From the NCBI GenBank assembly GCA_021845865.1, contig JAJZVC010000009.1, positions 8,218 through 72,217 of the forward strand: a DNA stretch of 64,000 nt, read 5' to 3'. Under the pieces are notes generated by a model. The model was given only the letters and a program-made list of their open reading frames with translations. It was not told the DNA's origin and did no database searches. Source of the stretch: Pseudomonadota bacterium. GTDB lineage: Bacteria; Pseudomonadota; Gammaproteobacteria; Burkholderiales; UBA9220. Made by a program: the position numbers and the translations under genes. Positions 2 through 36,234 of this stretch are shown here, piece by piece. Numbering within the stretch: position 1 is the first letter of the stretch; each line of letters begins with the position of its first letter.

Positions 2-613
2 TGGCAGTTGGCCCTGGGGTCGCTGCCGCGCCATTTCCGCCGCGCCCTGGGCGATTTTCCGTCCCATGGCGGTTATTTGCGCGCCGACCCGGCCAGGGCC
101 GCCGCCTGGGGAGAACGGCTGGGAAAGGCGGGAAAACTGCGCGTGGGCCTGAACTGGGCGGGCAACCCGGCATTCCGCCACGACCGCTGGCGCTCGGCCA
201 GCCTGGCGGACTTCGCGCCCTTGGGCGGCGTTCCTCATGTGGAGTGGTTCAACCTGCATCAGGGCGTGCGCAAGAGCGAATTGGCAATCGCGCCATTCCC
301 CCTCCACGACTACGCCGGCGAGTGGCGTGATTTGGATGACACCGCGGCGTTCATGGCGAATCTGGACCTGGTGATTTCCACCTGCACCGTGATTCCCCAC
401 CTGGCGGGGGCCCTTGGGAAACCGGCATGGGTTCTGGTCCATGGTCTGCCTTATTGGGCCTGGGGAGGCGAGGGGAAAGCCACGCCCTGGTACCCTTCTG
501 TCAGGGTGTTTCGTCAGCGGGGTTGGGGGGACTGGCCGGCGGTGATGGCGGAAGTGGCCGCTGCCCTGGGAGAGTTGGCCGTGGGGGGGGCGGAACTGGC
601 TCCTAAGGCATGA
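2..613 (+). CDS. 3'-terminal part of a glycosyltransferase family 9 (heptosyltransferase-like) domain protein; the 5' end lies outside the window
   Basis: Open frame from the window edge to the stop at 611-613. The translation (LNWAGNPAFRHDRWRS...DLVISTCTVIPHLAGALGKPAWVLV...PWYPSVRVFRQ) is colinear with the C-terminal half of the TPR-GT9 protein at 23130-24599 ([16 protein letters not shown]...[25 protein letters not shown]...[11 protein letters not shown]). Confidence 0.6.
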   Translation, partial: WQLALGSLPRHFRRALGDFPSHGGYLRADPARAAAWGERLGKAGKLRVGLNWAGNPAFRHDRWRSASLADFAPLGGVPHVEWFNLHQGVRKSELAIAPFPLHDYAGEWRDLDDTAAFMANLDLVISTCTVIPHLAGALGKPAWVLVHGLPYWAWGGEGKATPWYPSVRVFRQRGWGDWPAVMAEVAAALGELAVGGAELAPKA

Positions 614-34400: not shown

Positions 34401-36234
34401 CATTCTGGCCGCGGTCCGCGACCAGGTGGACAAGGTGCAGCGCCTGGTTGAAACGCTCCTGGCCAACACCCGCTATCCCAATTTCGAGCTGGTGCTGCTC
34501 AATAGTGCCAGCACCTCGGACGCGGCCCGCGCCTTCCTCGCCGGTATCCAGGCCCTCGGCGATTCGCGGTTGAGGGTGCTCGACCACCCGGTGAAGGAGC
34601 CGCTTCCTGCATTGCACAACATACTGGCTGGACAGGCACGGGGCGACTACCTGTTGTTCATGTATTTCGATAGCGCCGCCTTGCAGCCTGACTGGCTGGA
34701 CAGCCTCATGGAGCATGGCCGCCGGCCCGACGTGGGGGCGGTGGGCCCGAAGCTGCTGAATGCGGACGGCACGGTGCGGCAAACCGGCATCATCCTGGGC
34801 CTCGACGGCAGCGCCGGCACCGTCTTTTCGGGTCATCCCCTGGATTATCCCGGCTATTTCGGCCGCGCCCATATGGAACAGGATTTCTCCGCCCTCGGCG
34901 GCGGTTGCCTGCTGACGTCCAAGGCGCTGTTCGATGCCGTGGGCGGCTTCGACGGCGCGGCTTTGCCCCAACGCTTCGCCGAAGTGGATTACTGTCTCCG
35001 CTTGCGGGAAAAAGGCTACCGCCTGGTATGGACGCCCCACGTGAGCCTTCTCAACGATGGTCTTGCCGCGGCGATGAAGTGGGTCGAGTCGGAGGCGGGC
35101 GAGGACGAGGGCGAGGAGGAGGCCTTCCTACGCCGCCATCTCAAGGCGCTGGCCCTTGACCCGGCCTATAATCCCAATCTCAGCCTGGCCGGCGAAGCCA
35201 GTTTCAAAATCGAAACCCGCAAGCCCCTGGTTTGGAATCCCTTGCCCTGGCGGCCCCTTCCCCGCGTGCTGGCCCAGCCCGGAGACAGTGCCGGCTGCGG
35301 CGAATACCGTATTTTTTCCCCCATGCGCGCCTTGACCCAGGCGAAGAAAATTCAGGGGTGGGCGGATTTCCATGTTTTTTCGCCACCGGAAATGGAACGC
35401 CTGGACGTGGATGCCATCATTCTTCAACGCCAGACGCACCCGGACCAGGTGGACGCCATCGCGCGGCACAAGAAATACTCCCGCGCGTTCCGTGTTTACG
35501 AACTGGACGATTTGATCACCCACGTTCCGGTGCGGAACGCGCACAAGGACACCATGCCCAAGGATGTGGAGTTCTGGCTGCGGAAAGGGGTGGGCCTCTG
35601 CGATCGATTCGTGGTTTCCACCGTTCCGCTGGCCGAGGCCTTCAGGGGATGGAACCCGGACATACGAGTGGTGCCCAATTTCATCGAGAAGGCCCGCTGG
35701 GGTGAACTGAACCCCCAGCGCCGCCAGGGGAGGAAACCGCGAGTCGGCTGGGCGGGGGGCGTCGGACATGCCGGGGACCTGGAAATAATCACCGACGTGG
35801 TCAAGGAGTTGGCCGGGGAAGTGGAATGGGTGTTTCTCGGCATGTGTCCCGAAGGCATCCGCCAGTATGTGCAGGAGTTTTATCCCGGCGTGCCCATTCC
35901 CCTCTATCCGGCAAAATTGGCGAGCCTGAATCTGGACCTGGCTCTGGCTCCCTTGGAGCTGCATCCCTTCAACGAAGGCAAAAGCCACCTCCGTCTTCTG
36001 GAGTACGGCATTCTGGGCTATCCAGTCGTTTGCACCGACATTTACCCCTACCAGGGGGAGTATCCCGTCAAGCGGGTAAAAAATCGTCACCGTGACTGGG
36101 TGGAGGCTATTCGAGAAAGAATCAACGACTTGGATGCTTGCGCACGGGAAGGGGATGTTTTGCGCGAGCACGTGCGTTCCAGATGGATGCTGGAGGATAA
36201 TTTGGATTGGTGGATGCGGGGCTGGCTACCGTAA
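31471..36234 (+). CDS. 1587-aa multidomain enzyme: GT-B-like N-domain, class I methyltransferase, two GT2 domains, C-terminal GT-B (GT1/4-like) domain
   Basis: Uninterrupted 4764-nt ORF, ATGA-coupled to the upstream gene. Motifs include ADVVVSVESNMSVEAMMAGVPAINM, LVLDIGCGAGATG (nt 32881), PRIHLALLASP...IVDAGDRL...SDEDVL, LVSILAAVRDQ...FELVLLNSAS...GAVGPKLLNADGTVRQTG...AEVDYCLRLREKGYRLVWTPH, and RVGWAGGVGHAGDLEII...LLEYGILGYPVVCTD. Confidence 0.8.
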   Translation: MSGHAIVSCLWQKNIGVLESYAKRHPGVSIIIPSTFIGKSDEERLLAAGGKVVYLEKLLPASEMDAVKNLANGILARTGEMLASTSWRSYCVSQGWDGERFAPILAARANAEALSFVVLLEALEQAKKQYEIALAVVNEDLMPVGRVVANWARNNGIPSLVVSHSLILFRPYTVHDTLHADVMALFGERGAEGYLDLGVEAKRLRVVGNPAWDRYFALKRERSAIRREVAGRLGLDAARPIVLFGTTWAANLSAFGDERIYSKTLAAFFRGCALLRDQGMAVQPVIKDRMQNAAFSHDLIPSVAAESGFRPGEYAYTAEGVESLIVAADVVVSVESNMSVEAMMAGVPAINMVTEFGMRLGPCFDADAGIVESEPDELAMWLRRTLTDDAFRSGLLAAMEAKAPYYNMGVDGNATLRMVALMEELALPVKGNDRKKYIWQTLLNVSESDTNQYHNWCRSDLVEMFRHPPRLVLDIGCGAGATGEYIKKRYPAARVVGIEVNAGAARVAATRIDQVLQGKFEDFDLEAEGIRKGSIDTVIVADVLEHMYDPWGVMAGIAPYLTPDAQVVASIPNTRNLVLMSELADGGWTYDSWGLLDITHIRFFTLREIRRFFHETGYRIARLHYNMDSRLGEFYQRNKDKAQVDVDMGKLTIKGVSRDDLAELCTWQFYVLAEPGAVADEAFQAEEARRAGDEEKKSAYERWQEYRQFDEATAAIVNQRIERWETLPRIHLALLASPVDVERIGDTLRSLAVQNYQNLAVTVVSPAAAPSAWKDTEKLSWLRSPGDNLLHGVNQALLASPADWVGIVDAGDRLADAALVFLMEGAVENPAWQLIYSDEDVLQADGEYGLPHFKPDFNLDMLRSFPYVGGLLLARQRLFSDLSGFRPGCLGVEEYDLAFRAYEAGGEAIMGHCPGVLYHRRADGGHCRKPALELVESGRQVVAEHLRRQGIAAEVEKGLFPGSYRVRYRHEGAPLVSILAAVRDQVDKVQRLVETLLANTRYPNFELVLLNSASTSDAARAFLAGIQALGDSRLRVLDHPVKEPLPALHNILAGQARGDYLLFMYFDSAALQPDWLDSLMEHGRRPDVGAVGPKLLNADGTVRQTGIILGLDGSAGTVFSGHPLDYPGYFGRAHMEQDFSALGGGCLLTSKALFDAVGGFDGAALPQRFAEVDYCLRLREKGYRLVWTPHVSLLNDGLAAAMKWVESEAGEDEGEEEAFLRRHLKALALDPAYNPNLSLAGEASFKIETRKPLVWNPLPWRPLPRVLAQPGDSAGCGEYRIFSPMRALTQAKKIQGWADFHVFSPPEMERLDVDAIILQRQTHPDQVDAIARHKKYSRAFRVYELDDLITHVPVRNAHKDTMPKDVEFWLRKGVGLCDRFVVSTVPLAEAFRGWNPDIRVVPNFIEKARWGELNPQRRQGRKPRVGWAGGVGHAGDLEIITDVVKELAGEVEWVFLGMCPEGIRQYVQEFYPGVPIPLYPAKLASLNLDLALAPLELHPFNEGKSHLRLLEYGILGYPVVCTDIYPYQGEYPVKRVKNRHRDWVEAIRERINDLDACAREGDVLREHVRSRWMLEDNLDWWMRGWLP

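Follow-up and report, generated by a model that had tools for sequence, protein, structure and literature searches.

The stretch of DNA analysed here, 64,000 nucleotides (nt) of contig JAJZVC010000009.1 (assembly GCA_021845865.1) and hereafter called the window, carries a dense block of genes for making and transferring sugars that stops just short of the promoter of the flagellin gene fliC. Judging from sequence, the block is probably an island for O-glycosylation of flagellin in the cytoplasm of a Sulfuricellaceae-like betaproteobacterium, reaching from a tRNA-Asn gene to the fliC promoter. Confidence differs along its length. The fliC-proximal operon (23130-36234) very probably serves flagellin, since its last gene encodes a protein whose C-terminal part has 43 % identity to FgtA of Pseudomonas aeruginosa, and since 42 of 49 Gram-negative loci with the shared module have flagellin genes next to it, while the distal strings are assigned to flagellin because of where they lie, because they encode TPR fusions and because export genes are missing.

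An FgtA-like protein encoded next to fliC

Domains were called throughout by Pfam and NCBIfam profile scans, with the NCBIfam equivalog cut-offs used for the Pse enzymes. The fliC-proximal end of the island and the adjoining flagellar genes comprise the following features.

30206..31474, plus strand: methyltransferase of 422 amino acids (aa; Pfam) with a C-terminal half without assigned family, directly upstream of the FgtA-like gene
31471..36234, plus strand: 1587-aa fusion protein with a GT-B-like domain (1-430), a methyltransferase (447-624) and an FgtA-type GT-A + GT-A + GT-B glycosyltransferase (GT) module (about 694-1587)
36244..36270, plus strand: sigma-28 (FliA)-type fliC promoter, TAAAGTTT-N11-GACGATAA, with one mismatch to the consensus, the sole good match in the window
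36359..37879, plus strand: fliC flagellin, 506 aa, the presumed acceptor (Pfam Flagellin_N, Flagellin_C and Flagellin_IN)
37955..43200, plus strand: flaG, fliD (767 aa), fliS, fliT, a DUF2802 gene and fliK (Pfam; flagellar context)

Residues 694-1587 of the fusion protein were aligned by BLASTP to residues 818-1684 of P. aeruginosa PAO1 FgtA (PA1091; sequence from the supplement of PMC11833859), with the identity given above extending over about 900 aa (E 8e-166), and a pa1091 mutant was reported to produce non-glycosylated flagellin (PMC11833859). The same comparison revealed no similarity between residues 1-693 and FgtA 1-817, and the CD0244-like phosphotransferase region of FgtA has no counterpart. 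AlphaFold modelled the protein as two parts with predicted local distance difference test (pLDDT) scores of 90.6 and 89.9. In these models the N-terminal domain appears GT-B-like, with Foldseek matches to HepE, UDP-GlcNAc 2-epimerase/NeuC and MshA, and the tandem GT-A domains of the FgtA-type module seem to resemble K4CP chondroitin polymerase and PmHS2, with further matches to polypeptide GalNAc-transferases and PglA. The methyltransferase between them is of class I and matches PDB 3cc8 (E 1e-35). D148-E149-D150 and other residues of the FgtA-type module are invariant across 32 homologs.

The module has more than 1500 database matches, in which it is accompanied by varied N-terminal accessory domains. 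A scan of one genome per species for Gram-negative loci with the full module identified a flagellin-family open reading frame (ORF) within 10 kb in 42 of 49 cases, and the other seven lie on short or truncated contigs. In Pseudomonas loci the module sits in the fgtA position, it is likewise flagellin-adjacent in Dyella and Methylophaga, and the Andreprevotia locus (L006) displays the full order of pse genes, methyltransferase, FgtA-like gene, fliC, flaG, fliD and fliS. The pairing of the 422-aa methyltransferase with the FgtA-like gene also recurs (L001-L003, L006, L044 and L045). Three Thiobacillus-like relatives (L002, L044 and L045) carry a pse operon and an FgtA-like gene at the same site (fliK-glnD-map); there, a short, divergent flagellin of 285 aa follows the FgtA-like gene, and flaG-fliD-fliS are absent from the site.

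The stop codon of the FgtA-like gene ends at 36234, leaving a gap of exactly 9 nt before the promoter, the same distance that an earlier note on this DNA had given. Both a 92 %-related Sulfuricellaceae metagenome-assembled genome (L001) and the distantly related Andreprevotia locus retain the sigma-28 motif, with different bases on either side of it. A second sigma-28-like match (16033-16059, plus strand) has three mismatches and lies within a methyltransferase gene, and was set aside as probably due to chance. No terminator was found between the operon end and the promoter, so that, given the 9-nt spacing, operon transcripts probably read into fliC. The central domain of FliC contains 32 % Ser+Thr, and we propose that the FgtA-type module would place the first sugar or sugars on Ser/Thr residues of this domain before export. 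The cap protein FliD (38442-40745, plus strand) is also long (767 aa) and contains 26 % Ser+Thr.

A pseudaminic acid operon without PseH

The remaining genes of the fliC-proximal operon are listed below.

23130..24599, plus strand: TPR + GT9-like GT-B glycosyltransferase, 489 aa, first gene of the operon (Pfam; TPR 5-190, GT9-like 396-437)
24607..28500, plus strand: pseB, pseC, pseF and pseG (NCBIfam equivalogs, all over cut-off)
28497..29147, plus strand: formyltransferase-fold protein, 216 aa, in the expected pseH slot (Pfam Formyl_trans_N)
29144..30196, plus strand: pseI, pseudaminic acid synthase (NCBIfam TIGR03586, 507 bits against a cut-off of 340)

PseB, PseC, PseG, PseI and PseF scored 559, 549, 301, 507 and 334 bits, respectively, and all exceed their equivalog cut-offs. 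Pfam and NCBIfam scans detected no PseH-type GNAT in the island, hence the CMP-pseudaminic acid set, previously described as complete, amounts to five of the six enzymes. The slot protein retains the His and Asp of the formyltransferase catalytic triad in the motif VIHASDLPRGRG, whereas the Asn is exchanged for Val, and PDB alignment to its nearest solved relative, 1zgh, shows the same exchange there. From its sequence this Asn-less protein may represent a distinct, uncharacterised subfamily. Orthologs occur in the pse operon of L044 and, as a C-terminal domain, in L002. We propose that the operon would run the pseudaminic acid pathway through PseB, PseC, PseG, PseI and PseF, and that a non-orthologous enzyme may cover the PseH step; either the formyltransferase-fold protein or one of the two LbH acetyltransferases described below could carry out the N-acylation. 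As PseH is absent and the slot protein lacks the catalytic Asn, the product may differ from Pse5Ac7Ac.

Homologs of the 489-aa TPR + GT9-like enzyme adjoin flagellin genes in five loci (L035, L036, L077, L078 and L080), and among the candidates for transfer of the nonulosonate this enzyme ranks first. The operon encodes two kinds of protein glycosyltransferase, one built like FlmG from TPR and GT-B domains, the other the 1587-aa FgtA homolog.

Extent and borders of the island

After ORF listing, start codons were adjusted with the help of ribosome-binding sites and of genes called on near-identical contigs, which gave 28 tightly packed genes between 603 and 36234, in the layout of three packed strings and one TPR-methyltransferase gene that had been read from the sequence before.

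12761->603, minus strand: string of 10 genes
12909->20744, plus strand: second string, 8 genes
23037->20785, minus strand: lone convergent TPR-methyltransferase gene
23130->36234, plus strand: fliC-proximal string (pse operon), 9 genes
8..613, plus strand: 3' end of a TPR + GT9-like glycosyltransferase gene cut by the left window edge (536 aa in L089)

With the refined starts, neighbouring genes on the same strand overlap by 1-20 nt or are separated by at most 17 nt at 22 of 25 junctions; exceptions include the gaps 5' of the carbamoyltransferase gene (32-59 nt) and 5' of the first WbqC gene (2 or 83 nt). The right border given in the earlier note held, but the left one did not, as the island continues past the window edge. 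ORF 8-613 shares 40 % identity with the GT domain of the 489-aa enzyme, and contig DAIAMV010000049.1 (GCA_027438095.1; L089), which matches window 1-8497 at 99.66 % identity, reveals it to be the final member of a fourth string, whose four genes encode TPR + GT9-like (633 aa), TPR + GT41 (690 aa), TPR + GT41 (724 aa) and TPR + GT9-like (536 aa) proteins. The island is bounded by a tRNA-Asn gene (L089 15754-15829) some 7.3 kb to the left of window position 1; a polysaccharide pyruvyl transferase gene lies beyond it. Because this near-identical contig carries the four further TPR-GT genes up to tRNA-Asn, the island from there to the fliC promoter is about 43 kb long and holds 32 genes.

Within the window, nothing longer than 12 nt repeats the tRNA-Asn sequence, no integrase was seen, and the GC content of the island (0.600) equals that of the remaining window (0.604). 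These data leave horizontal acquisition unsupported, except for a low-GC cassette around the carbamoyltransferase gene. An Rfam scan returned no RNA family at gathering score.

The distal strings and their sugar-modifying enzymes

The minus-strand string, the second string and the lone convergent gene (603-23037) encode the following proteins.

603..1727, minus strand: DegT-family sugar aminotransferase, 374 aa (Pfam DegT, 6e-125; an identical 374-aa product is on record)
1727..2755, minus strand: NDP-hexose 4,6-dehydratase, 342 aa (Pfam; NCBIfam dTDP-glucose 4,6-dehydratase, 327 bits, just under the equivalog cut-off of 365)
2752..3462, minus strand: WbqC-family protein 1 (Pfam WbqC, 1e-78; start ambiguous, 3462 or 3381)
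3465..4157, minus strand: NeuD/PglB/VioB-type LbH sugar N-acetyltransferase (NCBIfam TIGR03570, 182 bits, cut-off 161)
4175..5878, minus strand: carbamoyltransferase, NodU-like (Pfam)
5911..7785, minus strand: AsnB-type glutamine amidotransferase (Pfam; NCBIfam asn_synth_AEB, 475 bits, cut-off 267)
7785-8840 and 8831-9832, minus strand: two radical SAM/SPASM enzymes (Pfam Radical_SAM + SPASM)
9825..11816, minus strand: TPR + GT-B glycosyltransferase A, 663 aa, O-GlcNAc-transferase-like (Pfam TPR + Glyco_trans_1_4)
11823..12761, minus strand: class I methyltransferase, first gene of the minus-strand string (Pfam)
12909..14867, plus strand: TPR + GT-B glycosyltransferase B, 652 aa (Pfam TPR + Glyco_trans_1_4)
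14857..20744, plus strand: remainder of the second string, namely WbqC 2, methyltransferase, LbH acetyltransferase, methyltransferase, PhyH dioxygenase, 299-aa protein and DegT aminotransferase (Pfam)
20785..23037, minus strand: TPR + class I methyltransferase, 750 aa (Pfam)

All enzyme classes that had been named from the translations were recovered by the profile scans: the 4,6-dehydratase, three DegT proteins including PseC, two WbqC proteins, two LbH acetyltransferases, the carbamoyltransferase, the AsnB-type enzyme, two radical SAM/SPASM enzymes, one PhyH protein and six methyltransferase domains. The earlier count of at least seven GT-like domains can be raised to eight (three TPR-GTs, PseG and four GT folds in the 1587-aa protein), and the cut ORF 8-613 adds one. 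The literature yielded no biochemical function for WbqC. The 299-aa protein (18706-19605, plus strand) matches no Pfam family and bears a faint likeness to GH130 beta-1,2-mannoside phosphorylases (NCBIfam E 5e-5; PDB E 0.1-0.4), and it may act in the manner of a glycoside phosphorylase or of a transferase.

We propose that the two upstream strings would act as portable sugar-tailoring modules, each with its own TPR-transferase, and would supply donors of the 4-amino-4,6-dideoxyhexose type that may be N-acylated, carbamoylated, amidated, methylated, hydroxylated or altered by the radical SAM enzymes. Such a system would need neither lipid carrier nor flippase, because all steps would be cytoplasmic, and the predicted proteins are consistent with this. 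In a Kyte-Doolittle scan the called island proteins contain at most one weak hydrophobic 19-mer each, and across all frames of 1-36300 no ORF of at least 150 aa has three or more hydrophobic segments; the positive control, a CitMHS transporter encoded elsewhere in the window, scored strongly. Domain and hydrophobicity scans detected no Wzx, Wzy, ABC exporter, polyprenol-phosphate transferase or ligase in the roughly 43 kb of the island and its extension. The earlier reading of the block as free of integral membrane proteins and exporters is thus borne out, and the missed exporters that would have spoken against it did not turn up. The Pfam scan also identified no MAF_flag10 (DUF115) domain among the 28 island proteins.

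TPR-fused enzymes

Inside the window the island encodes TPR-GTs of 663, 652 and 489 aa and the 750-aa TPR-methyltransferase, and the four TPR-GTs off the left edge bring the number of TPR-GT genes to seven, of three GT types (GT9-like, GT41 and GT1_4/OGT-like). The GT region of the 663-aa protein matches the bacterial O-GlcNAc-transferase homolog 5djs. A metagenome scan with the left-edge ORF returned relatives of 32-47 % identity and three added flagellin-adjacent TPR-GT9 cases. In published work, FlmG binds flagellin through its N-terminal TPR and Maf-1 through its C-terminal TPR; by analogy, we propose that the TPR domains of the island transferases other than the FgtA homolog, and that of the TPR-methyltransferase, would dock these enzymes on flagellin. 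The TPR battery and the portable radical SAM sugar module are the most interesting features of the island.

Another TPR + GT41 gene of the O-GlcNAc-transferase family (61847-63829, plus strand; Pfam E 6e-87) lies 24 kb past fliC, after plsX-fabH-fabD (fatty acid) and other housekeeping genes, indicating that this genome uses TPR-GT enzymes outside the flagellin island too.

Cassette exchange in relatives and proposed portable modules

Close relatives with 91-96 % identity (JGI Ga0453685_000083) carry the same island with different cassettes. The segment with the carbamoyltransferase and the LbH acetyltransferase (window 3429-5934; GC 0.528 versus 0.600 for the island) is replaced in one relative by a GNAT gene (L088 8799-9327), and four genes encoding two methyltransferases, an FAD amine oxidase and an M20 peptidase (L088 2808-7069) are added at window position ~7785, between the radical SAM pair and AsnB. 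Such swapping among near relatives is as expected of a surface-glycan diversity locus.

Counterparts of the distal modules were also found farther afield, where more distant homologs of the 663-aa GT are part of compact, soluble cassettes remote from flagellar genes. Locus L092 (8900-20051) contains a compact module of dehydratase, GT, WbqC, AsnB, two radical SAM enzymes, DegT and GNAT. Its identities to the minus-strand string are 62 % for the dehydratase, 58 % for WbqC, 54 % for AsnB, 70 % and 62 % for the radical SAM enzymes and 64 % for DegT, whereas its GT is 34 % identical to the 663-aa GT in the C-terminal part only. The sugar-making enzymes are thus kept and the transferase has diverged, which fits a module for one unusual sugar that is retargeted via its transferase; from its sequence, the L092 module appears to be a portable soluble glycosylation cassette. 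Its flanks consist of housekeeping genes, with no match to the flagellin profiles within 10 kb. L093 resembles the second string (PhyH, methyltransferase, GNAT, DegT, GT, WbqC and TPR-GT41) and L091 carries two GTs, AsnB and a TPR protein, both in non-flagellar contexts. WbqC, DegT, radical SAM and acetyltransferase genes recur, on the other hand, in FgtA-linked islands (L006, L029, L031 and L037).

How much of the block serves flagellin

The homology to FgtA, the 42 of 49 flagellin-linked loci and the Ser/Thr-rich FliC uphold the earlier designation of the block as a flagellin glycosylation island and the role of the proximal operon in it. The claim that the whole block decorates FliC goes further: for the distal strings it is not established, because L092, L093 and L091 lie in non-flagellar contexts and synteny is therefore no proof that these strings act on flagellin. 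We still regard the assignment of the whole block to flagellin as likely from its gene content and position, and several points weigh against it. The glycosylation of FliC is itself a prediction from sequence. The best-kept counterpart of the minus-strand module is found away from flagellar genes, as are relatives of the second string (L093) and of the TPR-GT (L091). The exact nonulosonate is uncertain, given the missing PseH and the Asn-less protein in its slot, and the likeness of the TPR-GT9-like enzyme to FlmG is one of domain architecture. Finally, TPR-GT41 enzymes of other bacteria modify pilin or adhesins, and one such gene lies outside the island here.

The most serious competing explanation is that only the fliC-proximal operon serves flagellin, and that the distal strings, along with the TPR-GT41 enzymes, are independent soluble modules that glycosylate pilins, adhesins, many cytoplasmic proteins (as OGT does) or a small molecule and simply adjoin the flagellin island. 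The occurrence of the same module, 54-70 % identical, among the housekeeping genes of L092, the same pattern in L093 and L091, the extra TPR-GT41 gene at 61847-63829 and the known activity of bacterial GT41 enzymes on pilin and the HMW1 adhesin all favour it. We nevertheless consider it rather unlikely, since the strings form an uninterrupted block from tRNA-Asn to fliC without any unrelated gene, since WbqC, DegT and radical SAM genes are also present in the flagellin-linked islands listed above, and since the weak and partial similarity of the L092 GT is compatible with the sugar having stayed the same while its acceptor changed in this island. That the distal strings instead make activated sugars for lipopolysaccharide (LPS), capsule or exopolysaccharide (EPS) assembled and exported by genes elsewhere seems improbable to us. 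DegT, WbqC, NeuD/VioB acetyltransferase and AsnB are classic families of O-antigen clusters, the top-scoring NCBIfam model for the AsnB-type protein is the PEP-CTERM EPS amidotransferase, though under cut-off (530 versus 817 bits), and the pyruvyl transferase gene just past tRNA-Asn could be read in the same way; however, the island encodes none of the export or ligation functions sought and no membrane protein, and every string has its own TPR-fused transferase, an architecture for protein acceptors.

The SPASM radical SAM pair and the AsnB-like enzyme also call to mind peptide maturation, in which SPASM enzymes and AsnB-like cyclases are common, and weak NCBIfam likenesses to lasso-peptide cyclase and peptide maturases were indeed recorded. 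These scores are far under the family cut-offs, no precursor-peptide gene was seen, and both in the window and in L092 the pair is embedded among 4,6-dehydratase, DegT, WbqC and glycosyltransferase genes, so that an action on a peptide, as in ribosomally synthesized and post-translationally modified peptides, rather than on a sugar is hardly credible. Returning to the flagellin island, one can picture that the seven TPR-GTs and the TPR-methyltransferase dock on flagellin and form, with the FgtA fusion and its four GT domains, a protein-templated line that builds a branched heteroglycan on the protein itself and without lipid carrier, with amino-sugars that are radical-SAM-modified, carbamoylated and amidated, and with cassettes retargeted by swapping the acceptor-binding part of the transferase. 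We advance this extended model as a tentative possibility, with appreciable doubt.

Comparison with known flagellin glycosylation systems

The island is a large and richly equipped case of an already known type of system, not a new type. Its closest parallel is the FgtA island of P. aeruginosa (PA1088-PA1091 in b-type, orfA-N in a-type strains), which likewise places a GT gene directly upstream of fliC, followed by flaG-fliD-fliS, and shares the GT-A/GT-A/GT-B module, methyltransferases alongside it and a soluble cytoplasmic system. The PAO1 island has 4 genes compared with about 32 here, and as described it lacks the pse genes and TPR-transferases; moreover, a GT-B-like domain and a methyltransferase here replace the CD0244-like N-terminus of FgtA. 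FlmG of Caulobacter and Brevundimonas offers the N-terminal TPR with C-terminal GT-B, the linkage to pse genes, the lack of Maf and cytoplasmic transfer from a CMP-sugar, but is one enzyme where this island has seven TPR-GT genes and a TPR-methyltransferase. With the C. jejuni and Aeromonas loci it has in common a pse pathway beside flagellin genes in a large, variable locus with many tailoring enzymes, whereas those systems combine Pse/Leg pathways with Maf transferases, and FgtA and TPR-GT transferases without MAF_flag10 are found here. The viosamine island of Pseudomonas syringae (vioA, vioB, vioT, vioR, vioM and fgt1/fgt2), whose enzymes make a modified 4-amino-4,6-dideoxyhexose for flagellin, shares DegT, a VioB-type acetyltransferase and a methyltransferase; two such cassettes are present here, together with WbqC, carbamoyltransferase, AsnB, PhyH and two radical SAM enzymes, which are not reported from the P. 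syringae island.

Island surveys reported maxima of 30.4 kb with 23 coding sequences for Geobacillus and of 23 kb with 18 proteins for Enterobacteriaceae, while the C. jejuni loci comprise 20-50 genes (PMC4065374). To call the island unusually large was therefore fair and even an understatement, as its roughly 43 kb exceed both survey maxima, though its gene count falls inside the Campylobacter range. The further statement that its glycan is more elaborate than that of Campylobacter is unsupportable, because the C. jejuni loci reach 50 genes (PMC4065374) and gene count does not predict glycan complexity. Radical SAM, carbamoyltransferase, asparagine-synthase-like and TPR proteins are not mentioned in the Geobacillus and Enterobacteriaceae surveys, and a full-text literature search for flagellin glycosylation with radical SAM returned nothing relevant.

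Implications

Flagellin glycans influence how bacteria move, how phages and the immune system recognise them, and the chemistry of the cell surface. To our knowledge, almost all mechanistic knowledge about them stems from a few pathogens. The island described here shows how far such a system can expand in an uncultured environmental sulfur oxidiser, in which FgtA-like and FlmG-like transferases are combined with a Maf-free pseudaminic acid pathway. It also draws attention to families not yet tied to flagellin glycans, namely WbqC, SPASM radical SAM enzymes that occur as a pair, and the formyltransferase-fold protein that lacks the catalytic Asn. The reusable design of a soluble sugar-making cassette with a TPR-tethered transferase could, in addition, serve cytoplasmic glyco-engineering.

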